This document shows, piece after piece, positions 7,173-16,195 of a stretch of 64,000 bases of DNA. Where the stretch lies: IMG/VR virus record IMGVR_UViG_3300047375_000738. One strand, written 5' to 3'. Numbering within the stretch: position 1 is the first letter of the stretch; the number at the start of each line of letters is the position of its first letter. The position numbers and the translations under genes were made by a program. The DNA is from a virus (Duplodnaviria; Caudoviricetes). The notes beneath the pieces were generated by a model. It was not told the DNA's origin. It was given only the letters and a program-made list of their open reading frames with translations, and did no database searches.

Positions 7173-7550
7173 CATCTAAGATATTTGTGAAGAGTGCCGT
7201 TGACTATTGTGATGGACTTGGACAATTTTATTTCACCAATTCTCTACTCTCCAACAGCCAACGACAAACATATTTATCCTAGTATAGACTATAGTATAGT
7301 CGAGAACAATAGTCAAGAAGATAGTCGAGTAGAGTTCTCACACTGTGTGTATAGTATAGTATAGAGTTTGAACTGTAGTGTATACGCATCGAGTATAGTT
7401 GAGAGAGACTATAGTAGTAGGTTAGAGTCACAGTGTACACTCGTGGATTTATTGGCAAAAGTATTTGAACTATGCCTCCTTCTACCTTGGTCAATGGTTT
7501 AAAATACTCTAGTAAATCGTTGAAAAACTTAGAGAATATCACTGTGACCG

Positions 7551-7636
7551 TGTCATACGACCCCGTATGACTTGTCGTTAACCACCGTATGACACGTCGA
7601 TAGCCACCGTATGACGTGTCGATAAGCACCGTATGA
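7551..7636. repeat. Iteron-like array: CCGTATGA core x4 at 22-bp period plus one inverted copy
   Basis: Cores at 7563, 7585, 7607, 7629; inverted TGTCATACGA at 7551. Confidence 0.9.
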
Positions 7637-8052
7637 AGGTTAACTTGACGATGTAAGCTATTGATCTTTAAGCGAATATTCACTTTTGAGAACTTGACTT
7701 GCTTGACAAAGGCTCAGCACTAAGTGTATAGTATAAGCAGTTGATTTTATTATCCTTTTTCCTCCACTATAGTCTACTACTATACTATACACACTTATAG
7801 TATATACTTCAACCTCTTAGTATACTATACTATATACTATAGCAACTTCGTCTGCTAAGTCTTTGTTTTTGTTGACAAAATCAAATCCTCTTTTAAATCA
7901 ATAGGTTAGCTAGTGTTGTTCCGAGGGGCCATGTGCTGTGTGTAAGTGTTTGAGGCCATTAGAGAAATACTACACTGTAAGTCATTGAGATCATTGGATA
8001 ATGTGAGGGGCGCCGCTAGGAGTGTGTGCAGCTTAGAGACCCCGCGAGAGAA

Positions 8053-8192
8053 TGGTTTAATATTAAACTATATTTTCTAACTAGTTTAGTATTAAACTAT
8101 CTCGAGGCAGGTAGTTTAACATTAAACCATTTTGGCGAGAAGGTTTAGTATTAAACCATTTTGAGACCAGGAGATAGTTTAACGTTAAACCA
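8053..8192. repeat. Five tandem 18-bp palindromes WRGTTTAR-NN-TTAAACYA
   Basis: GTTTA(A/G)NNTTAAAC cores at 8055, 8084, 8114, 8143, 8177. Confidence 0.9.
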
Positions 8193-8248
8193 TAGGTTCA
8201 GAGCTCCGTGCCCTCCCGTACGGTACATTCTTTCCCGGCCTCACATAT

Positions 8249-8277
8249 AATATAACATGACTCCTAGAGGTTTGCAA
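8249..8277 (-). promoter_or_regulatory. Leftward sigma70-type early promoter P0
   Basis: Minus strand TTGCAA-17 bp-TATATT followed by ATATGT as in P1/P4/P5/P7. Confidence 0.7.
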
Positions 8278-8335
8278 CCAGAAAGAATCTAATAAAATCA
8301 ATAGGTTATAAAATAAATTTATTTTATTTTTTTGG

Positions 8336-8364
8336 TTGACAACGTTGTATACATGTGCTATATT
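8336..8364 (+). promoter_or_regulatory. Early promoter P1
   Basis: TTGACA-17-TATATT, TGn extension, upstream T-tract. Confidence 0.85.
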
Positions 8365-8399
8365 ATATGTATAAGTTAACAAGCATAGAGGGAAATATT

Positions 8400-8687
8400 A
8401 TGCTACACTATACACAAAATGACAAATTTGTATTTTTTAACGCTGTTGACGCACAAGTGCAGCTAACAGTAGAAGACGCTGTTGTTGGCGCTGCTGACAG
8501 TGTAGACGCACTTGTTGAGCTGCTGCTACGTGCAGACGTTCGTGCAACAGACAGAATTATGTTTAGCAGCGACATGGACTTTGCTAGTGAAGAAGGCTTT
8601 GCTACAGATTCCGCTGCACATGAGCTGCTAGAAGCTGCACTTGAAACAAGTGGCTTGACTGCACAAGCAGACGACTTGCTAGTATAG
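8400..8687 (+). CDS. Acidic early protein
   Basis: ATG after GAGGG leader; upstream MLYYMY of the ORF track is promoter sequence. Confidence 0.7.
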   Translation: MLHYTQNDKFVFFNAVDAQVQLTVEDAVVGAADSVDALVELLLRADVRATDRIMFSSDMDFASEEGFATDSAAHELLEAALETSGLTAQADDLLV

Positions 8688-8699
8688 CAAAAAAAAGAC

Positions 8700-8728
8700 T
8701 TGACACTATAGCGCACTTGTGCTATAGT
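8700..8728 (+). promoter_or_regulatory. Early promoter P2 (contains 10-bp inverted repeat)
   Basis: TTGACA-17-TATAGT. Confidence 0.85.
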
Positions 8729-8758
8729 GTTAGTATAAACAAACATAGAGGGCAATCA

Positions 8759-9103
8759 ATGTTTTACATTTACGAAAAATCAAGTACTTATATTATGGGA
8801 TACAAAAACGGCAAAGTTCGTCCGGATCACCGCAAGAGCTATAAGACTATGGCTAGTGCTAGAGCAGCATTAACCAAGTGGAGCCATCAGTGGTGGCGTG
8901 AAGAAGGTATCAACGGCGACAGTGCAAACAACAATCCTCACTTCCGTTATGGCATCGCAAGGGCCAACTACTTCCACGACACTATTGAGAAGAAGCGTAC
9001 AGTGTACAGCATCTTTGATGAGGCTAAGGAAAACCCAATCACTGAGACTGTGAACACTCCAGGTTACATGTCGCCCAGCAGAGAATCTTATTGGAGCATG
9101 TAA
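8759..9103 (+). CDS. Early hypothetical protein
   Basis: ATG after GAGGGC; ends NTPGYMSPSRESYWSM. Confidence 0.7.
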   Translation: MFYIYEKSSTYIMGYKNGKVRPDHRKSYKTMASARAALTKWSHQWWREEGINGDSANNNPHFRYGIARANYFHDTIEKKRTVYSIFDEAKENPITETVNTPGYMSPSRESYWSM

Positions 9104-9111
9104 AAAAGAGG

Positions 9112-9140
9112 TTGACACAGCCGCAAGGCTGTGTTATATT
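9112..9140 (+). promoter_or_regulatory. Early promoter P3 (GCAA-loop hairpin in spacer)
   Basis: TTGACA-17-TATATT; ACACAGCC-GCAA-GGCTGTGT. Confidence 0.85.
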
Positions 9141-9175
9141 AATTGTATAGAAACGCTAAACGGAGGGCATCCACA

Positions 9176-9652
9176 ATGGCAACTAGAGCTCGTATCGGAA
9201 TCGAAAACGCAGACGGTTCAATCTTAACTTCATATCATCACTGGGACGGTTACCCAGCAGGCTTGGGTTTCAACCTAGTCAACAACTGGGCAGACGAAGA
9301 TTTGCTTGGTGCCGCTATTCAGTTAGGTGACGCATCGCATTGGGCAGACACTATTGGTAGCAAGACAGACTTTGACTGCCGTGACGATAACTATTACGCA
9401 CAGAATGTCTACTACGGACGTGACCGTGGCGAAACAGATGTAGGTCCTAAGGCTTATGCTTCCTATGAAGTGTTTGAAAAGTGCTTCCAGCGCAACACAC
9501 CCTGTGGTGAAGAGTATGCTTATGTCTTGCGCTTAGACGGTACATGGACACAGATTGCAGTGTATACCAAAGAAGTCTTGCATGATGCGGAGGATTCAAT
9601 CCGCACTGCCAAGGCTCGTATGCAACGCATGATTGATCAGGAGGTAGTGTAA
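9176..9652 (+). CDS. Conserved phage early protein (HWDGYP motif)
   Basis: MATRARIGI...YHHWDGYP...EEYAYVL. Confidence 0.7.
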   Translation: MATRARIGIENADGSILTSYHHWDGYPAGLGFNLVNNWADEDLLGAAIQLGDASHWADTIGSKTDFDCRDDNYYAQNVYYGRDRGETDVGPKAYASYEVFEKCFQRNTPCGEEYAYVLRLDGTWTQIAVYTKEVLHDAEDSIRTAKARMQRMIDQEVV

Positions 9653-10176
9653 TGCCTAACTGGTGCAACAACACAATCACAATCACTGGCGATTACGATA
9701 CACTCGTCCAACTGAAACCTGTAGTAGAAGCAGGCGAAGGCTTGCTTCAAGCAATCGCACCTATGCCTAAGGAACTAGAAGGCACTGTGGCTCCTAGTGA
9801 TGAACCCAACTGGTATGACTGGTGTCACGAGAACTGGGGCACCAAGTGGGATCCAGAGCTGAACCTAGAGTTCATCGACAATGGTGATGGCACTGCTACT
9901 ATCACAGGATTCTTTGAAACTGCATGGGCTCCACCTATTGCGGCAATGCACACCTTGTCACAAGACTGGGACTCGTGCTACATTGAACTCTTCTATGAAG
10001 AAGGCGGTATGTGCTTCGTAGGCTGTTGGGATAGTGAAGGTGGCGATGACTACTACGACTATTCAGAAGCTGACAGCAAGACCATCACCGACATCGTTCC
10101 CAAGTACCTAGTAGAGGAGTTCGCACTAGACGAACGGTTAGCTGAGTATGAAGAAGAGGAGTTGCAGGATGCTTGA
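9652..10176 (+). CDS. YubB/Api92-like ferredoxin-fold protein (DUF1281-like)
   Basis: MPNWCNNTITI...NWYDWCHENWGTKWD...FETAWAPP..YEEGG. Confidence 0.75.
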   Translation: MPNWCNNTITITGDYDTLVQLKPVVEAGEGLLQAIAPMPKELEGTVAPSDEPNWYDWCHENWGTKWDPELNLEFIDNGDGTATITGFFETAWAPPIAAMHTLSQDWDSCYIELFYEEGGMCFVGCWDSEGGDDYYDYSEADSKTITDIVPKYLVEEFALDERLAEYEEEELQDA

Positions 10177-10312
10177 TGCTCTACTAGACGATATCGAAGC
10201 TGTGCTCAAGAAGTATAGCGGAAGCGATTGGGAGATTATGGATGTTGACTTCAGCGATGGCGGAGCAGTGTTCACAGTGAGTGCAGGCCTTAAGGAGGAA
10301 GAGGATGTATAA
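10169..10312 (+). CDS. 47-aa acidic protein (absent from ORF track)
   Basis: MLDALLDDIEAVLKKYSGSDWEIMDVDFSDGGAVFTVSAGLKEEEDV; overlaps neighbours. Confidence 0.6.
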   Translation: MLDALLDDIEAVLKKYSGSDWEIMDVDFSDGGAVFTVSAGLKEEEDV

Positions 10313-10427
10313 GGTAAAGGATGCCTCAGGCGAAATAGTTGCTATCTGTAGTCGACTAGAAGATGCAGAAGCTATGTGCCAAACTGTTGGAAAACAAATT
10401 CGTAGATTTATTGAAAAAGTAGGTTGA
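10305..10427 (+). CDS. 40-aa protein (absent from ORF track)
   Basis: AAGGAGG SD; MYKVKDASGEIVAICSRLEDAEAMC..; stop inside P4 -35. Confidence 0.6.
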   Translation: MYKVKDASGEIVAICSRLEDAEAMCQTVGKQIRRFIEKVG

Positions 10428-10452
10428 CAACTAGTGTGCCCTATGCTATATT
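10424..10452 (+). promoter_or_regulatory. Early promoter P4
   Basis: TTGACA-17-TATATT. Confidence 0.85.
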
Positions 10453-10490
10453 ATATGTATAGGGCAACACAGTAAGAGGGAACTTACAAA

Positions 10491-10688
10491 ATGGCAGACA
10501 TTTGCATTTTTAACTCAGCATACCGTGACAGCGAAAAGCGTTGGATCTCAGTAGACGATGTGCGTGTAGTAACAATGAAAATGGACTACGACAACCGTCC
10601 TTACATGCTGTTTGAGCACACAGACTTTCCACTAGGCGGATTACGTGCAGACTTCAAAGACGGCAACTGGTACTGTGATTTAGATTAA
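10491..10688 (+). CDS. Early hypothetical protein
   Basis: Leader hairpin GTAAG-AGGGAA-CTTAC before ATG. Confidence 0.7.
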   Translation: MADICIFNSAYRDSEKRWISVDDVRVVTMKMDYDNRPYMLFEHTDFPLGGLRADFKDGNWYCDLD

Positions 10689-10701
10689 TAGGAGATAGAA
10701 T

Positions 10702-10947
10702 ATGAAACTTAATGCAAGAGAACTTCAGAAGCTAATGGGTCTTCTACGCAATGTAGCAGAAGTTGATCCAGAAGATGTGATCTCCAACTGTGCATCGCAG
10801 CTGGCGTATGAACTTGAAACTGTTAAGGTGCCATTCGACACCAACACAATGAACGAGAAGCGCCAAGAGCTTGTTCGTTATGCTATCGGAAAAAGAAACA
10901 AATATCGGTTGACACCCGGCGCTCGTCATGCTATAGTAGTAGAGTAA
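10702..10947 (+). CDS. Early hypothetical protein
   Basis: AGGAG SD. Confidence 0.65.
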   Translation: MKLNARELQKLMGLLRNVAEVDPEDVISNCASQLAYELETVKVPFDTNTMNEKRQELVRYAIGKRNKYRLTPGARHAIVVE

Positions 10948-10966
10948 TAAGGGCAAAGAGGGTAAT

Positions 10967-11095
10967 ATGGAAATCGATTATTTTGAAGACGATGTAGAAG
11001 AGCGCAGCTGGATCGCTGCAATGCTTATCAATGCAACCAGCTTCGCAATGAACTTGACACTCGTTGTAGGCTTAACATATTGGATGGTAGGATGA
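10967..11095 (+). CDS. 42-aa single-pass membrane peptide (absent from ORF track)
   Basis: MEIDYFEDDVEERSWIAAMLINATSFAMNLTLVVGLTYWMVG; GAGGG SD. Confidence 0.6.
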   Translation: MEIDYFEDDVEERSWIAAMLINATSFAMNLTLVVGLTYWMVG

Positions 11096-11301
11096 ACGAC
11101 TTATTTGAAATCGTAGAAGACCTTAAGGACATTGACACCTTTGGTAGCGATACCACAGCGTTCGAAGACATCCTTGTGAAGTGGCAAGCTCGTTTGGTAG
11201 AAGCTGAACATGAAGCGGATCGTCAATATGAAATGTTTGCAGGAGTCGCTAAGATACTTGACAAACGTTATGAAACATTTGAAATGGATGACGGAGCATA
11301 G
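11092..11301 (+). CDS. Acidic coiled-coil early protein
   Basis: ATGA overlap with previous stop. Confidence 0.6.
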   Translation: MNDLFEIVEDLKDIDTFGSDTTAFEDILVKWQARLVEAEHEADRQYEMFAGVAKILDKRYETFEMDDGA

Positions 11302-11309
11302 ATAGAACT

Positions 11310-11393
11310 GCTCGCATGGTGGAATGGTAGACACTACAGACTTAAAATCTGTTGCCGCAAGGCGTCCCGGTTCGAATCCGGGTGCGAGTACCA
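11310..11393 (+). tRNA. tRNA-Leu (anticodon TAA)
   Basis: Acceptor GCTCGCA/TGCGAGT, anticodon arm ACAGA-CTTAAAA-TCTGT, long variable arm, GGTTCGAATCC, encoded CCA. Confidence 0.95.
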
Positions 11394-11405
11394 AATACTT
11401 CTGCT

Positions 11406-11482
11406 GGTCTCTTAGCTCAGCTGGATAGAGCAAGTGCCTTCTAAGCACTAGGTCGCAGGTTCGAATCCTGCAGAGATCGCCA
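11406..11482 (+). tRNA. tRNA-Arg (anticodon TCT)
   Basis: Acceptor GGTCTCT/AGAGATC, arm AGTGC-CTTCTAA-GCACT, GGTTCGAATCC, encoded CCA. Confidence 0.95.
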
Positions 11483-11502
11483 AAAGTATTTGAACAAAGA
11501 GG

Positions 11503-11531
11503 TTGACAATGTGCTGCTCTCATGCTATATT
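11503..11531 (+). promoter_or_regulatory. Early promoter P5
   Basis: TTGACA-17-TATATT. Confidence 0.85.
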
Positions 11532-11566
11532 ATATGTATAGGGCAAACAGACAAGGGCTAAAGATT

Positions 11567-11884
11567 ATGAAATTTGTTATCTCAACACAGTACTTAGAAA
11601 ACTATGGCGCACACTGTGAGGACGGTAAGTTCTCCAGCGGTAATGCATACTGGAAGATGAAGGGCGGCACTGATTACATCGTGTCCGACTTAGAGCGTGT
11701 TCAGGATGCGATTGCATTCGTAATGGCCAAGTTCGGCACTAATGATATCTCCCAGAAGGAGTATCCAGTAGCGTTCCGCAGCTATGATGAGTGGGAGACA
11801 GAGTTGGACAAGGAGAGCGTTGAATATGCTGACTTCATTAGGTCAACAGCCAAAGATGTGTCACCACTAGAGGAGGCGATATAA
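11567..11884 (+). CDS. Conserved phage hypothetical protein
   Basis: MKFVISTQYLENYGAH..YWKMKGGTDYIV; AAGGGC leader. Confidence 0.7.
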   Translation: MKFVISTQYLENYGAHCEDGKFSSGNAYWKMKGGTDYIVSDLERVQDAIAFVMAKFGTNDISQKEYPVAFRSYDEWETELDKESVEYADFIRSTAKDVSPLEEAI

Positions 11885-12045
11885 TGTTTGAAGGTTCAGT
11901 TGAAATCCTAATTGCGTTCGTCGCTGTACTTGCTGCGGTAGGTGTAGTCACTATGATTATCCGTGCTATGAACGTTCCTGTAGTAGCAGCAGCAACCATT
12001 GGCGTTCTAGGTTGGATGCTTTTCTTTTATCAATTATCACAATAA
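11884..12045 (+). CDS. 53-aa two-helix membrane protein (absent from ORF track)
   Basis: GAGGAGG SD; MFEGSVEILIAFVAVLAAVGVVTMIIRAMNVPVVAAATIGVLGWMLFFYQLSQ. Confidence 0.65.
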   Translation: MFEGSVEILIAFVAVLAAVGVVTMIIRAMNVPVVAAATIGVLGWMLFFYQLSQ

Positions 12046-12049
12046 GGGG

Positions 12050-12078
12050 TTGACAAGCGAATGACTATGTCGTATAGT
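12050..12078 (+). promoter_or_regulatory. Early promoter P6
   Basis: TTGACA-17-TATAGT, preceded by TGTCG. Confidence 0.85.
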
Positions 12079-12108
12079 ATACGTAACAAAACAACTTATG
12101 AGGGTAAG

Positions 12109-13110
12109 ATGAACGTTAGATTCAACAGTGGCTATTTTAGCTTTAAGGGTAGAAACATCGAAGTGGCAGATAAAGTACTTCCATTATCACAAGGATTCAA
12201 GATAGGTGTTCGCGGCGGCTACGTAACAGTAGACGGTAGTGCAGTGTCTGGTTATCCAGATCGCAATATCAAAGTCTATGTAGACAGTGAGCAAGACTTC
12301 GTTGAAGTTGATGACTCCGTAGCCGTCGCTGCTCCTGAAGACGAGAGTGATGCTGCAATTGTAGAACGCTTGCGCAAACGTTTTAACATGCTAGGCGACA
12401 TGACTAAGGCAGTCAAGAAGGGTGATGTACGTGCAATGATCGTAAGTGGCCCTCCAGGTGTAGGCAAGTCGCATGGTGTTGAAGAAGTACTAGACCGCTA
12501 CAAGACTCTAGAAGCCTTAGGAGGTACACGCAAGTATGAAGTGATCAAAGGTGCTATGTCACCTATTGGATTGTACTGCAAGCTCTATGGCATGGCAGAC
12601 AAAGGTAACGTTGTGGTATTTGATGACTGTGACAGCATCTTCCAAGACGATCTAAGCCTTAACATTCTAAAAGCTGCACTAGACAGCAAGGGTCGTAGAA
12701 TGATCCATTGGAACACTGATTCATTCAAGCTGCGCAACGAAGGTGTGCCAGACTCGTTTGAGTTTAAAGCATCTGCTATCTTTATTACCAACATGAAGTT
12801 TGACAAAGTCAAAGGCAAGCTAAAGGAGCACCTAGAAGCACTAGAGTCACGTTGCCACTATATGGACCTTACAATTGACACAGACCGTGACAAGATGCTG
12901 CGTATCAAGCAGGTTGTGATGGACGGTATGCTCAATGCATACAAGCTAGATCAAGAGATCAAGGACGAGATCGTAGACTTCGTTGATATTAATAAGAACC
13001 GACTACGTGAGCTGTCATTGCGTACAGTGCTCAAGGTAGCGGATCTAGCAGTGGCATTCCCAGACGATTGGGAAGCCTTTGCAGAGAATACGGTGATGCG
13101 TCGAGCATAG
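12109..13110 (+). CDS. AAA+ ATPase with N-terminal extra domain
   Basis: Walker A GPPGVGKS, Walker B VVVFDDCD, sensor FITN, ALESRC arginine finger. Confidence 0.85.
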   Translation: MNVRFNSGYFSFKGRNIEVADKVLPLSQGFKIGVRGGYVTVDGSAVSGYPDRNIKVYVDSEQDFVEVDDSVAVAAPEDESDAAIVERLRKRFNMLGDMTKAVKKGDVRAMIVSGPPGVGKSHGVEEVLDRYKTLEALGGTRKYEVIKGAMSPIGLYCKLYGMADKGNVVVFDDCDSIFQDDLSLNILKAALDSKGRRMIHWNTDSFKLRNEGVPDSFEFKASAIFITNMKFDKVKGKLKEHLEALESRCHYMDLTIDTDRDKMLRIKQVVMDGMLNAYKLDQEIKDEIVDFVDINKNRLRELSLRTVLKVADLAVAFPDDWEAFAENTVMRRA

Positions 13111-13130
13111 AGCTCCGCACATCGTACAAA

Positions 13131-13237
13131 CGCTGCTAAAGGTGCCCTCCCTTAGCAGCACATAGGAAGCAATGCAATGCCCTCACGCTGCGCTTCCAAC
13201 CATGTAGCAGCAGGACCGCCCTCATCCTGCTGCTACA
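13131..13237. ncRNA. Putative structured RNA: three hairpins, each with a GCCCTC (+) / GAGGGC (-) loop
   Basis: H1 13131-13160, H2 13165-13197, H3 13203-13237 (perfect 13-bp stem). Confidence 0.7.
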
Positions 13238-13255
13238 ATTCTTTTAAAATAGTGG

Positions 13256-13284
13256 TTGACAACTGAGTATTCTCATGCTATATT
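13256..13284 (+). promoter_or_regulatory. Early promoter P7
   Basis: TTGACA-17-TATATT. Confidence 0.85.
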
Positions 13285-13316
13285 ATATGTATAGTTAGAC
13301 ACAACGGAGGGCTCCA

Positions 13317-13595
13317 ATGGCATACTACACTCACACAAAGGATCCAGTTGGTGCATTCCAAGAGAAGGACACTGGCAACTGGTTTGAATGGAGCATCAAC
13401 AACGATGTGCTCAATAACATCAACGAAGACTTTCCACACAAGGTTTGGACTGGTGGTGCAGGCGTGTGTGGCGATCAAGGATATCGTTATGCTCACGTGA
13501 TGAAGACTCGTGTGGTAGTGTGTGTAGACGAAGACGAGTTTGGTCTTCCTGTAGTAGAGAAATGGTATACCAAGAAACATAATATTTATGGTTGA
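13317..13595 (+). CDS. Conserved phage hypothetical protein
   Basis: GGA-GGGC-TCC leader; GYRYAHVMKTRVVVCVDEDEFGLPVVEKW. Confidence 0.7.
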   Translation: MAYYTHTKDPVGAFQEKDTGNWFEWSINNDVLNNINEDFPHKVWTGGAGVCGDQGYRYAHVMKTRVVVCVDEDEFGLPVVEKWYTKKHNIYG

Positions 13596-13620
13596 CAACT
13601 AGTACAACCTGTCGTATACT
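13592..13620 (+). promoter_or_regulatory. Early promoter P8
   Basis: TTGACA-17-TATACT. Confidence 0.85.
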
Positions 13621-13650
13621 ATTAATATAAACAGACATTAGGAGGGCTCC

Positions 13651-13869
13651 ATGTCAACAGAATTAAAAAGCAACACCAAAGATGTAAGCCTTACACGCTT
13701 CTGGGGAGGAGAACTTAAAGTTCAAGTCACTACACCTCGTGCTGCCAACTTAGGTCCGCTGACTACAGCAGACAAGTTCTTCCAAAGCATACAGCTCAGC
13801 AAAGACGAAGCTAGGTCATTAGCACTAGACTTGTTCCGCTTCGCAGAAGATCAATCGGAGGAATTGTAA
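13651..13869 (+). CDS. Early hypothetical protein
   Basis: GGA-GGGC-TCC leader; VSLTRFWGG. Confidence 0.7.
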   Translation: MSTELKSNTKDVSLTRFWGGELKVQVTTPRAANLGPLTTADKFFQSIQLSKDEARSLALDLFRFAEDQSEEL

Positions 13870-13997
13870 TGACTCGCAAGGAATGGGTAGGCGAACTGTT
13901 TGGTTACGCTGTTATCGCAATATTCGCATTTGGATGGATTGACTTTGGACAAGGACCTAGTCTTACTTGGTGGAATTTAATTCAATTTTTTGGTTGA
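13869..13997 (+). CDS. 42-aa membrane peptide (absent from ORF track)
   Basis: GGAGG SD; MTRKEWVGELFGYAVIAIFAFGWIDFGQGPSLTWWNLIQFFG. Confidence 0.6.
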   Translation: MTRKEWVGELFGYAVIAIFAFGWIDFGQGPSLTWWNLIQFFG

Positions 13998-14022
13998 CAG
14001 CATACCAATCCTGTCGTATAAT
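13994..14022 (+). promoter_or_regulatory. Early promoter P9
   Basis: Perfect TTGACA-17-TATAAT. Confidence 0.9.
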
Positions 14023-14057
14023 ATTAGTATAAACAAAACAATGTAGAGGGCATTTAC

Positions 14058-14327
14058 ATGAAACGCAATTTAAGAACAGCATACAATCAATTGAACAAGA
14101 TTGGTTGTCCAACTATTGAAGGTGGATACTACGGCGAAGACAGCTTTCGCATCAGTGCAGAGAGTGGTGATGAGCACCACACATGGGCTGACTACTATAT
14201 GATGACAGACGGTGATTGCACTGGCTACATCATGGGCGTAAGCAACCGTATCAATGATATACTGGATCCACTGGGCTTGTATGCCGAATGGATCAATCCA
14301 GGTGTCCTAGCAGTGTGTGAGGCCTAA
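14058..14327 (+). CDS. Early hypothetical protein
   Basis: ATGTAG-AGGGCAT-TTACAT leader hairpin. Confidence 0.7.
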   Translation: MKRNLRTAYNQLNKIGCPTIEGGYYGEDSFRISAESGDEHHTWADYYMMTDGDCTGYIMGVSNRINDILDPLGLYAEWINPGVLAVCEA

Positions 14328-14328
14328 T

Positions 14329-14601
14329 ATGAAAAACCTCAACAACTATATAAACGAAAACTTGATGTTCGGTGGCTTTTATGGCACCAACATCACCTTT
14401 CCACTTAGCCAGAAGAGTGTGGACACTATTGCACGTAGACTGGACAGAGATTTGTCACCTGAGAACCTACACTGTGATGGAGAGATAAGCCACGCTGAAG
14501 CAGAGCGCAAGTATCAGTTCTATGGTCGGGTGATCCGCGAGCTTGAGAACTATTGTCTCAACAACTGGTTGAACTCTCCTGTGGTAGAAGAATATTATTA
14601 A
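14329..14601 (+). CDS. Early hypothetical protein
   Basis: LSPENLHCDGEIS motif; follows previous stop directly. Confidence 0.7.
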   Translation: MKNLNNYINENLMFGGFYGTNITFPLSQKSVDTIARRLDRDLSPENLHCDGEISHAEAERKYQFYGRVIRELENYCLNNWLNSPVVEEYY

Positions 14602-14609
14602 TTAAATGG

Positions 14610-14638
14610 TTGACAGTATACGGTAGATGTCGTATACT
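14610..14638 (+). promoter_or_regulatory. Early promoter P10 (10-bp inverted repeat)
   Basis: TTGACA-17-TATACT; ACAGTATACG-N8-CGTATACTGT. Confidence 0.85.
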
Positions 14639-14676
14639 GTTACTATAAGTTAAACATTGTAAGAGGGCAAAACACA

Positions 14677-15099
14677 ATGGCATATGTATCACAAGCAGAC
14701 AAAAAATCATTAGCACCAGCTATCAAGGCAGTGCTCAACAAGTATGGTATGAAAGGTTCAATCCGTGTGCGCAATCATTCAACACTGTGTGTAACAGTTA
14801 AGAGTGGTGGCATTGACTTCTCAGACTACATGCGTGGAGAAGCCTACATTGATGTCAACGAGTATTGGATCGATCAACACTATTCAGGCATTGCTCGCAA
14901 CTTCCTAAACGAACTATTGGACGCAATGAAAGGTCCTAACTACTTCAACAATGATGATGCGATGACAGACTACTTCCACCGCAGCCACTACACTGATATC
15001 ACTATTGGTACAGCGTGGAACAAGCCTTACACCTACATGCCCAACAGCATTCCAAACGAACTAAAGGTGGATGCAACTAAGGCAGCCTACATAGTATAA
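14677..15099 (+). CDS. Conserved phage hypothetical protein
   Basis: MAYVSQADKKSLAPAIKAVLNKYGMKGSIRVRNHS; GAGGGC leader. Confidence 0.75.
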   Translation: MAYVSQADKKSLAPAIKAVLNKYGMKGSIRVRNHSTLCVTVKSGGIDFSDYMRGEAYIDVNEYWIDQHYSGIARNFLNELLDAMKGPNYFNNDDAMTDYFHRSHYTDITIGTAWNKPYTYMPNSIPNELKVDATKAAYIV

Positions 15100-15103
15100 G
15101 AGG

Positions 15104-15132
15104 TTGACAGTATACGGCATGTGTCGTATACT
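15104..15132 (+). promoter_or_regulatory. Early promoter P11 (same inverted repeat as P10)
   Basis: TTGACA-17-TATACT; ACAGTATACG-N8-CGTATACTGT. Confidence 0.85.
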
Positions 15133-15169
15133 GTATGTATATTAACAAACAAGATATGAGGGTATCACA

Positions 15170-15454
15170 ATGACTATGATTAATACAGTACTAGATCAAA
15201 TCCAACGCATGGACAACGACGAACTCAATAGAGTTATTGCAGCAGTCAAGAGTCAGCGAACATACATTGCTCGCAACATGACACGCAAGCTGAGGGTAGG
15301 TGATGTAGTCACCTTTGAAGGCAGAGGTGGTGCGACTGTTACTGGTAGTGTGCGCAAGATCAATCCTAAGACTGTGCTAGTAAAGGACAGGGCTAGTGCT
15401 ACTACATGGAAGGTTACAGCTACGCTTCTAACACCATTGCACGTAGGAGAATAG
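15170..15454 (+). CDS. Hypothetical protein with C-terminal SH3/KOW-like domain
   Basis: LRVGDVVTF..VTGSVRKINPKTVLV..WKV; GATA-TGAGGG-TATC leader. Confidence 0.7.
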   Translation: MTMINTVLDQIQRMDNDELNRVIAAVKSQRTYIARNMTRKLRVGDVVTFEGRGGATVTGSVRKINPKTVLVKDRASATTWKVTATLLTPLHVGE

Positions 15455-15514
15455 GCAGCTAGGAGCCTGTTGAGACTCGTAGGGAGTTAGACTATCCTAG
15501 ACTACACTAGACGG

Positions 15515-15548
15515 AGAGGCAATCAGAAATGGTTGTCTCTTTTTCTTT
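15515..15548 (+). terminator. Intrinsic terminator closing the early module
   Basis: Stem AGAGGCAATC/GGTTGTCTCT (two G-U pairs) plus T-tract. Confidence 0.75.
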
Positions 15549-15735
15549 GGTCGGTCACTAACGAAAAAAAAAAAATTTTGAGAGGTCGGTCGCTTAGTAT
15601 ATTATACAATTAATACAAGCACTTAGCTAGTAGTGGGGTTGCAAAATCACCACCGTGAAAGCATAAGTACTTCTCTATAAAAAACTGCGCAGCAAAATTT
15701 TTACCCTGCAGGACCCATTTCGGATATATAACTGT

Positions 15736-15843
15736 ATGCACGGTGATAGAGGAAATCCTAAGATAGTTGTACTAATGATTGGTCTATGTGTGTTTCTACA
15801 CTTTATACTAATACCCGTATGGATGTATCTTTTAGGACTATAA
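15736..15843 (+). CDS. 35-aa membrane peptide (absent from ORF track)
   Basis: MHGDRGNPKIVVLMIGLCVFLHFILIPVWMYLLGL; preceded by GATATATA-N5. Confidence 0.5.
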   Translation: MHGDRGNPKIVVLMIGLCVFLHFILIPVWMYLLGL

Positions 15844-15940
15844 CGTTCTCGACTATATCGAGCAACACGAAGTGAGTCAATAGACGACACGTAGTGCAGC
15901 GAAGTTATCGAGTATACGAGATATTCACTATAAATACTGT

Positions 15941-16195
15941 ATGGCTCAATGGTTTGTTACTGTACATAGGTCAAGTGAAGATCCGTTCAATTATCCTTAT
16001 TTGGGTAAAGTACAATACTTCAAGGTAGAGCTAATGCATCATCGTTTTAGTATACTAGAGCATCCTGACTATCCCGGTAGTCATCGTGCTAGGTTTATTG
16101 CACTACATGAATGTGATAGTCGCATAACATATGTAGCTATGAAATATCACGATTGCATACCGTTCTCTTATGATAAAATGACTTCTTTTGTATAA
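15941..16195 (+). CDS. Hypothetical protein
   Basis: TATAAATA-N4-ATG. Confidence 0.6.
   Translation: MAQWFVTVHRSSEDPFNYPYLGKVQYFKVELMHHRFSILEHPDYPGSHRARFIALHECDSRITYVAMKYHDCIPFSYDKMTSFV

Follow-up and report, generated by a model that had tools for sequence, protein, structure and literature searches.

The stretch of DNA analyzed here (the window) is 64,000 nucleotides (nt) long and is part of a 98.5-kb IMG/VR virus record, IMGVR_UViG_3300047375_000738, with a CheckV completeness of 27%, which derives from a tailed phage (Duplodnaviria; Caudoviricetes). The phage is common in seawater metagenomes of many studies. Its structural and ATPase genes are distant relatives of those of the Pseudomonas jumbo phage PA5oct, which has the nearest cultured ATPase homologue (45-48% identity), and no near DNA match was found among 50,697 phage records. 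Between positions 8336 and 15132 the plus strand carries 12 near-identical sigma70-type promoters (GGTTGACA-N17-TATAnT), which form an early array serving about 20 small genes of unknown function, two transfer RNA (tRNA) genes and one AAA ATPase gene (12109-13110). Two elements of this array are the subject of this work: a short AGGG-containing tag in front of the first gene behind each promoter, and an RNA of three hairpins behind the ATPase gene, the loops of which are complementary to the tag. The whole array contains two terminators, at 13203-13246 and 15513-15542. Assembled contigs of four metatranscriptomes match parts of 8352-15735, as would be expected if the block is expressed, but this is slender evidence; none matched 7500-8351 or 15736-16000, a gap in coverage that carries no weight as evidence.

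All 12 promoter-proximal early genes have (G/A)AGGG 4-10 nt upstream of their ATG, and the distance from promoter to (G/A)AGGG is 19-27 nt in every case. The cassettes share one layout, in which GGTTGACA-N17-TATAnT is followed by aTaTGTATA, an A-rich stretch and the tag. The tag is purine-rich and its GGG lies 4-10 nt from the ATG in 12/12 leaders, as expected of a Shine-Dalgarno (SD) sequence. It reads GAGGG in 11 first genes and AAGGG in the remaining one (11553), and three leaders (10460, 10949 and 11539) contain a second, upstream tag, TAGGGCA or AAGGGCA. In the early-sense direction the entire 98.5-kb record has 17 GAGGG sites, of which 11 are first-gene tags. On the other hand, none of the seven internal early genes (9652, 10169, 10305, 10702, 11884, 13869 and 14329) carries the (G/A)AGGG tag; all of them use GGAGG, AGGAG or GAGG-type sites without AGGGC. 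Likewise, neither GAGGG nor AGGGC lies within 20 nt of the start of any of the 76 minus-strand open reading frames (ORFs) of at least 100 amino acids, which use AGGAG, AAGGA or GGAGA. The AGGG tag is real, well beyond chance, conserved and specific to the first cistrons of the early operons, and it is not equally common at all gene starts. A preceding analysis, made from the letters alone (the sequence-only reading), had assigned AGGG to all first genes and ordinary GGAG-type SD sites to most internal ones, and both statements stand; its count of 11 first genes has to be raised, since there are 12 promoters. The gene at 10967, which it listed as an internal exception, is promoter-proximal, with a promoter of its own (10909) inside the upstream gene.

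The hairpin RNA lies directly 3' of the ATPase stop codon on the plus strand and constitutes the 3' untranslated region (3'UTR) of this early gene, without a promoter of its own. Hairpin H1 (13132-13159) has the apical loop UGCCCU. H2 (13165-13197) has the loop region AAUGCCCUCACGC, its loop reading AAUGCCCUCAC. H3 (13203-13237), which together with a U-rich tail extends to 13246, has a 13-bp stem and the loop CCGCCCUCA, and is the intrinsic terminator of the ATPase transcript. The loops of H1, H2 and H3 are the complements of AGGGCA, GUGAGGGCAUU and UGAGGGCGG, respectively. The 119-nt stretch 13128-13246 folds at -49.4 kcal/mol (z = -6.55). Counted in the early-sense direction over the entire record, CCCTC has 11 occurrences; the loops of H1-H3 account for three of them, and a hairpin at 8206-8223 for one. 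The H2 loop class GCCCUCACGC was seen again in five related loci (L001, L003, L006, L083 and L159), and the H3 loop recurs on a different stem in L006 and L083. Rfam gave no match at the gathering score over the whole window, and at E values up to 10 on 13050-13300 it gave spurious matches to microRNA hairpins only. In PA5oct the next gene starts 44 nt past the ATPase stop codon, and a hairpin RNA of this kind is absent from that locus.

The tag pairs better with these loops than with the ribosome. Duplex energies were computed with loop-only strings and with the canonical 3' tail of 16S ribosomal RNA, from which the tail of the actual host, whichever it is, may differ. Against this canonical tail GAGGGC reaches -6.3 kcal/mol and GAGGUG -11.7 kcal/mol, in keeping with the earlier proposals that GAGGG is the poorer match to the anti-SD sequence and that ribosome binding alone is insufficient to explain it. 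In 12/12 first-gene leaders the loop duplex (median -14.3 kcal/mol) beats the duplex with the 16S tail (median -6.9 kcal/mol), whereas the tail beats the loops in six of the seven internal early genes. Duplexes of the tags with the tail range from -4.2 to -12.0 kcal/mol and are weaker than those of internal genes (-5.6 to -15.4 kcal/mol). When all 3,456 ATG contexts of the genome were ranked by their RNAduplex energy with 14-21-nt segments around the loops, the ranking did not discriminate, as long imperfect duplexes with the stems outranked the short loop matches.

The most telling evidence comes from related phages. About 160 related IMG/VR loci, designated here by L numbers, were collected via the ATPase gene and fall into three clades on the ATPase tree. 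Clade A, which includes the window, has AGGGCA in its leaders (often AAAGGGCAAA, and sometimes doubled) and two to five hairpins behind the ATPase gene, with the loops GUGCCCUCG, UGCCCUCAC or CCGCCCUCA (core UGCCCU). Clade B has the leader tag GGAGCGAA, with AAGGAGCGAA on 13-30 promoters per locus, and the loop sequence UUCGCUCC, present as two hairpins with the loop AUUCGCUCC closed by CCG/CGG. The leaders of clade C contain GGAGCUA or GGAGUUA, and here the complement is a single-stranded GGUAGCUCC (UAGCUCC) located between two hairpins. In 98 of the 99 loci in which both could be typed, the leader and the 3'UTR are of the same type (39 AGGGC/GCCCT, 52 GAGCGA/TCGCTC and 7 GGAGCT/AGCTCC), and a clade-A tag with a clade-B loop, or the reverse, was never found among these 99. 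Matching by the top 7-mers of leader and 3'UTR was dropped because of a register mismatch (AGGAGCG versus GGAGCGA). The three tag/loop types coincide with the three clades of the ATPase tree, and a smaller change within them follows the same rule: the two loci with the loop CUCGCUCC have GGAGCGAG leaders in 4/11 cases, compared with 12/296 elsewhere. The suggestion that the tag is the target of the RNA at 13131-13237 is thus strongly supported, since three loops complement the tag and tag and loop co-vary across three clades.

Several further features characterize this co-variation. Firstly, the complementary sequences are concentrated behind the ATPase gene: the 250 nt past its stop codon represent 1.7% of the sequence and hold 28% of all anti-leader 7-mers. 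TCGCTCC, the antisense form, is nearly confined to the 3'UTR (about 104 of 116 sites, 52 loci), and the sense form is found in leaders. Secondly, when sequences are folded singly, the anti-tag core falls within a hairpin loop at 82% of the 3'UTR sites of type A and 66% of those of type B, against 8-12% elsewhere. Among 42 distinct sequences of type-B terminator hairpins the loop CCG-AUUCGCUCC-CGG is invariant, while the outer stems all differ and yet pair; because these stems lie at variable offsets, RNAalifold on a MAFFT alignment caught the inner 3-bp stem only, and single-sequence folds were used. Thirdly, the tag behaves as a translational signal of first cistrons. Its distance to the ATG has a standard deviation of 1.3 nt, compared with 4.5 nt for the distance from the -10 box to the tag, an ORF follows 285 of the 297 GGAGCGA sites of type B, and the tag is present on 74% of promoter-proximal versus 12% of internal genes in type A and on 49% versus 8% in type B (Fisher 3e-36). 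Finally, the portion of the tag that is unable to pair with 16S (GCAA or CGAA) is the portion that co-varies with the loops, and 64% of the GGAGCG leaders continue with AA.

Additional sequences of the anti-tag kind occur at other positions. In the window a candidate fourth element at 8188-8223 (plus strand), upstream of the first early promoter, consists of AGAGCUCCG followed by the hairpin CCGUGC-CCUCCC-GUACGG (8206-8223), and it opens with the same prefix, AGAGCTCCG, as the ATPase 3'UTR (13108-13117). In type-A phages the ATPase stop codon is immediately followed by a single-stranded (C)GCUCCGC or AGAGCUCCG (13108-13117 in the window, and L087, L095 and L159), which in the window recurs at 8188-8197. 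Since the anti-tags of types B and C have GCUCC as their core, this element may be vestigial, or it may be an additional seed against GGAGC. In some relatives extra hairpins with anti-tag loops lie several kb from the ATPase gene (L052:4414-4470, L022:5769, L038:6080, and L007:1739 and 9033), and therefore the RNA can exist in more than one copy per genome. L005, with leaders AGAGGA/AAGGAG and loops CCCUCUCCCUC and CUCCCU, was considered as a fourth co-varying type and was not counted, its contig having only four promoters and the match extending over 4-5 nt.

Taken together, we favor the view, with a probability of roughly 0.7, that a multi-loop RNA in the 3'UTR of the ATPase gene pairs with a private, extended SD tag on the first cistrons and thereby represses early translation. 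Direct RNA-RNA pairing of tag and loops is the simplest reading and is well supported by their co-variation; that it takes place in the cell is inferred. According to this model, AGGG(C) would mark the first cistron of each early operon and bind the ribosome weakly, and the hairpin RNA, either within the ATPase messenger RNA (mRNA) or cut from it, would pair its loops with the tags and so block binding of the 30S subunit. Such pairing would mask the ribosome-binding site, and its effect is therefore likely to be repression. Downstream cistrons would be silenced along with the first one through translational coupling. Internal starts overlap or adjoin the preceding stop codon, with TAATG at 9652, 11884 and 13869 and overlaps of 8 nt at 10169 and 10305; as most of them overlap this stop or sit about 1 nt from it, most internal early genes are probably translationally coupled. 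The RNA would be made from the early promoter at 12050 and is very stable in silico, so that repression would build up with early transcription, and the outcome would be negative feedback on, or shut-off of, early protein synthesis.

Several points weigh against this model. The pairing is short (5-10 bp), and for two tags of the window (GAGGGAA, 8388 and 10476) the match to the loops is limited to 5 nt. The co-variation amounts to about two independent switches among three clades plus one micro-variant, not to dozens of events. The promoter-leader cassettes are homologous repeats, and the uniformity of the tag within a genome could therefore partly reflect concerted evolution. Repression, as opposed to stabilization or activation, is deduced solely from the covered SD site, and the RNA is presumed to accumulate as a stable species, on which the metatranscriptomes bear little, as they are assembled contigs that give no ends, abundance, strand or processing. 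In a subclade within clade A (L116-L158), as well as in L036 and L037, the ATPase gene is not directly followed by an RNA of this kind, and some of these loci keep AGGGC-like leaders. As to the leaders themselves, the ATPase leader in L116-L158 (for example L141:9920-10000) still has the three repeats AAGGCAA, AAGGCAA and AGGGCAC, and in L036 (IMGVR_UViG_3300026094_000847) the leaders at 11422, 15782 and 17875 mix AGGGCAA and GGAGCGA tags, sometimes within one leader.

The alternative that survives best, although we consider it unlikely, is that the leaders form the device themselves, with the SD in a hairpin loop and the AUG in the stem, and serve as thermosensor, translation damper or kissing-loop platform. 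The 12 cassettes, all on the plus strand, provide the material for judging it. The leader of cassette 1 (8336-8402; promoter 8336-8364, tag GAGGGAA 8388-8394, ATG 8400) has a 7-bp stem, AGCATAG/TTATGCT, that encloses the tag and pairs the ATG, and that of cassette 2 (8700-8761; promoter 8700-8728, tag GAGGGCA 8748-8754, ATG 8759) has a 6-bp stem, AAACAT/ATGTTT, that also pairs the ATG (leader z = -3.2). Cassette 3 (9112-9178; promoter 9112-9140, tag GAGGGCA 9163-9169 in GGAGGGCA, ATG 9176) heads a four-gene operon, and its best loop duplex is with H1, at -19.8 kcal/mol compared with -12.0 kcal/mol for the anti-SD. Cassette 4 (10424-10493) comprises a promoter at 10424-10452, an upstream tag TAGGGCA at 10460-10466 and an SD tag GAGGGAA at 10476-10482 before the ATG at 10491, with a 5-bp stem, GTAAG/CTTAC, around AGGGAA. 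Two tags are likewise present in cassette 5 (10909-10969), the promoter of which (10909-10937) lies within the preceding gene (AAGGGCA 10949-10955, GAGGGTA 10958-10964, ATG 10967), and in cassette 6 (11503-11569; promoter 11503-11531, TAGGGCA 11539-11545, AAGGGCT 11553-11559, ATG 11567), the only first gene with AAGGG in place of GAGGG. Cassette 7 (12050-12111; promoter 12050-12078, tag GAGGGTA 12100-12106, ATG 12109) is that of the ATPase gene and has a 4-bp stem, CTTA/TAAG. In cassette 8 (13256-13319; promoter 13256-13284, tag GAGGGCT 13307-13313 in GGAGGGCUCC, ATG 13317) the loop duplex reaches -19.1 kcal/mol, against -10.0 kcal/mol for the anti-SD. Cassette 9 (13592-13653; promoter 13592-13620, tag GAGGGCT 13642-13648, ATG 13651) has a 5-bp stem, GACAT/ATGTC, that pairs the ATG. 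A 6-bp stem, ATGTAG/TTACAT, is found in cassette 10 (13994-14060; promoter 13994-14022, tag GAGGGCA 14046-14052, ATG 14058), together with a 9-nt match, GAGGGCAUU, to loop H2, and another 6-bp stem, CATTGT/ACAATG, pairs the ATG in cassette 11 (14610-14679; promoter 14610-14638, tag GAGGGCA 14663-14669, ATG 14677). Cassette 12 (15104-15172; promoter 15104-15132, tag GAGGGTA 15158-15164, ATG 15170), finally, has the 4-bp stem GATA/TATC.

Every leader stem listed in the sequence-only reading is present in the window. When the AGGG core was fixed as unpaired and the 16-nt flanks were shuffled, stems of at least 5 bp were found in 6/12 window leaders, compared with 1.4 in shuffles (P=0.0005), and stems of at least 6 bp in 4/12, compared with 0.4. 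In five of the stems the start codon is paired with a CAT that precedes it, and the minimum free energies of the leaders lie slightly below those of dinucleotide shuffles (mean z -0.9, Stouffer -3.1). In Staphylococcus aureus, moreover, RNAIII contacts hairpin loops of the rot and coa mRNAs through its own loops (PMC2837412). However, the stems are weak (-3 to -6.6 kcal/mol), the feature was chosen by eye from this window, so that selection bias applies, and no stem excess exists in homologous leaders, either among 31 and 162 type-A and 189 type-B leaders (P=0.3-0.95) or in the nearest relatives, L112 and L006, which are at chance. The orthologous ATPase leaders of L001, L003 and L006 have no stem. 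As an excess is lacking in about 380 homologous leaders, the hairpins cannot be counted among the conserved parts of the device. The claim that stems are more frequent than in shuffled leaders is borne out in the window and fails in the relatives. The "covarying stems" that had been described are therefore those of different paralogous leaders of one genome and not evolutionary co-variation. We conclude that the leader hairpins are real but local to this genome and probably dispensable; they may help a loop-loop contact, though the family does not need them.

Another possibility is that the tag is read by a protein, either a RegA/CsrA-like translational repressor or a RegB-like endoribonuclease, with the hairpin RNA being unrelated or a decoy. 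Phage T4 provides precedents for a protein-read signal in early leaders (RegB and RegA; PMC3014915), and as the record is 27% complete, a protein reader could have escaped notice. Within this 27%-complete record no RegA, RegB, CsrA or Hfq homologue was found and PF01818 and PF10715 gave no match, and none of the ten early proteins that were scanned matched a named family of the RegA, CsrA or RegB kind. Nor does the tag resemble the known sites: its core is AGGG(C), with GGGA in 2/12 tags, which differs from CsrA/RsmA operators, where a GGA core (A(N)GGA) occupies a hairpin loop at the SD sequence, and it is G-rich, with GGAG in 3/12 window tags and absent from the other nine, which differs from T4 RegA operators, which are A+U-rich, unstructured and include the AUG, and from RegB sites, in which GGAG precedes an A-rich stretch. 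Furthermore, a decoy of the CsrA/Rsm type would have the same motif as the mRNA, whereas the multi-loop RNA has its complement, and a protein reader leaves unexplained why one to five complementary loops or single-stranded sites behind the ATPase gene switch together with the tag in three clades. The RegA/CsrA-like operator put forward in the sequence-only reading thus finds no support, and we regard a protein reader as improbable.

We attach no more weight to the view that the tag has no regulatory role and is simply the SD part of a promoter-leader cassette, similar to the PeSL cassettes of T4-type phages, that was spread by duplication or recombination and kept uniform by concerted evolution, its complementarity to the loops being incidental. 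The 12 cassettes are clearly homologous, the leaders of relatives have long stretches in common (for example atatgtataagttaataaagca), and T4-type phages are known to have mobile promoter cassettes by which early genes are shuffled (PMC2839356). Concerted evolution explains the sameness within a genome, but not why structured loops at a conserved position hold the exact complement, nor the invariant loops among 42 distinct hairpins with varied stems, nor the matched switch of tag and loop in three clades. The conservation of the non-SD extension (CGAA or GCAA) despite the absence of 16S pairing, including the AA that so often follows GGAGCG, also speaks against it. Lastly, a double-stranded, orientation-blind operator for a phage or host transcription factor, placed downstream of the early promoters and inverted behind the ATPase gene, would fit a motif that occurs in both orientations on DNA and lies at about +13 to +30 of the transcripts, where roadblock repressors act, but it is hardly credible given the strict orientation split, the antisense copies in apical loops of hairpins with co-varying stems, which is a single-strand feature, and a spacing held to the ATG rather than to the -10 box.

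It is instructive to compare the RNA with known systems. The cuckoo or CcsR small RNAs (sRNAs) of Alphaproteobacteria (RSs0680, alpha-r14) consist of two to four adjacent hairpins with one C-rich, anti-SD-like loop motif, CCUCCUCCC, on freely varying stems (PMC4615179), and a 3'UTR is the source from which CcsR RNAs are processed (PMC4615179, PMC8034643). The place of the window RNA, immediately after the ATPase stop codon and lacking its own promoter, is compatible with such an origin. The window RNA resembles them in having three adjacent hairpins with GCCCUC loops, the stems of which vary in relatives while the loops are kept. However, its loops read UGCCCU, AAUGCCCUCAC and CCGCCCUCA and not CCUCCUCCC, with CCUCCC present only in the 8206-8223 hairpin, and the RNA is not matched by the Rfam model. 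Moreover, cuckoo/CcsR RNAs are chromosomal, stress-induced and encoded behind a DUF1127 gene, whereas the window RNA is encoded by a phage behind an AAA ATPase gene, and descriptions of them mention neither a private tag on a defined gene class nor lineages in which tag and loop switched in concert. In its presumed action the window RNA is most like RNAIII, whose C-rich loops (hairpins 7, 13 and 14, including the terminator) pair with G-rich SD sequences of several functionally related mRNAs and block the 30S subunit, sometimes by loop-loop contact (PMC2837412); similar pairing of C-rich loops is reported for the UCCC-motif Rsa RNAs and the 6C sRNA of Mycobacterium tuberculosis (PMC6486639). 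RNAIII, Rsa and 6C RNAs are host regulators of virulence genes, and their targets have ordinary strong SD sequences, with specificity arising from further pairing. In the window system, in contrast, specificity would reside in a short private SD extension common to a whole temporal class of phage genes.

The nearest phage case is the c4 RNA of P1 and P7, which blocks translation of a phage mRNA by pairing its loop sequences with complementary sites near the ribosome-binding site, and whose differences in specificity between P1 and P7 result in heteroimmunity (PMC12197685). Here, too, a phage RNA is proposed to pair at ribosome-binding sites. The c4 RNA acts on one operon (ant) in temperate phages and serves immunity, whereas in the present group there are 12-26 leaders per genome in apparently virulent phages of the jumbo type; the Rfam C4 model gave no match, and the context is the early array of a jumbo-type phage. 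By sequence, the window RNA is not a member of the cuckoo/CcsR, RNAIII or c4 families. A likeness in outcome exists with phage T4, in which RegB cuts early mRNAs at the extended SD consensus GG*AGRAYARAA, while about 30 mRNAs are repressed by RegA through their initiation regions (PMC3014915). In both cases early messages would be silenced as a class via a signal in the SD or initiation region, and strong RegB sites extend past GGAG (PMC3014915), but in T4 the reader of the signal is a protein, a nuclease or a repressor, and not an RNA. The PeSL cassettes of T4-type phages are arrays of strong sigma70-like promoters before small non-essential early genes, and they probably drive gene shuffling (PMC2839356). 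They combine a terminator stem-loop with a promoter, and no shared SD tag or complementary RNA has been described for them; in the window the promoter array is present, but a terminator lies directly before promoter 13256 only, and most cassettes have none. In the literature we found no description of a private SD tag of early genes that co-evolves with a phage RNA.

Some other features of the region deserve mention. Early promoters at 8703-8730, 9113-9136, 14613-14640 and 15107-15134 are long inverted repeats, one arm being formed by the -35 end plus the spacer and the other by the -10 box plus the bases beyond it (for example ACAGTATACGG...CGTATACTGT), and relatives have similar repeats (for example GTATAGCA-N5-GTGCTATAC). 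A dimeric repressor may use them as its operator, or they may form a cruciform. Just upstream of the first early promoter (8057-8200) there are five copies of a 14-bp palindrome, GTTTA(A/G)nnTTAAAC, at a spacing of about 30 bp, which look like sites for a dimeric DNA-binding protein, such as an origin, a partition site or an operator array. A 1.2-kb non-coding stretch (7270-7860, 7545-7630) is rich in short direct repeats of the TATAGTATAG type and contains four ACCGTATGAC copies with small hairpins and two GAGGGG sites (7923 and 8005); a strong promoter at 7703-7732 is directed into it. The two tRNA genes, tRNA-Leu(UAA) and tRNA-Arg(UCU), lie within the early array at 11310-11482, downstream of promoter 10909, and the much higher summed metatranscriptome depth of this stretch comes from contigs that carry tRNAs of other organisms. 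Between the window and the genome record there are seven single-base differences (11104, 11495-11496, 11593, 18672, 24717 and 54828), four of which cluster at 11104-11593, near the tRNA genes.

The finding may have several implications for the biology of these phages. If the pairing works as we propose, one small structured RNA and an mRNA address of 6-8 nt would govern the whole early gene class in a group of uncultured phages that is large, widespread in both marine and freshwater habitats and represented by contigs of up to 357 kb. Going further, it is conceivable, though we hold it to be doubtful, that the system is a protein-free temporal switch, in which the private SD extension is an address read only by the phage's own multi-loop RNA, so that a single RNA could silence the entire early class. 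Lineages with AGGGCA/UGCCCU, GGAGCGAA/UUCGCUCC and GGAGCUA/UAGCUCC would then be mutually orthogonal, and during co-infection the RNA would shut down a relative that shares its type but spare one of another type, as in the heteroimmunity of c4. In practical terms, the tag is a simple annotation marker of early first cistrons in these phages, and the three natural tag/loop pairs are ready-made orthogonal parts and potential tools for translational control. If true, the system would be an RNA counterpart of the early shut-off that T4 achieves with RegB and RegA, and the first case in which a private SD extension and the RNA that reads it are seen to change together in evolution.

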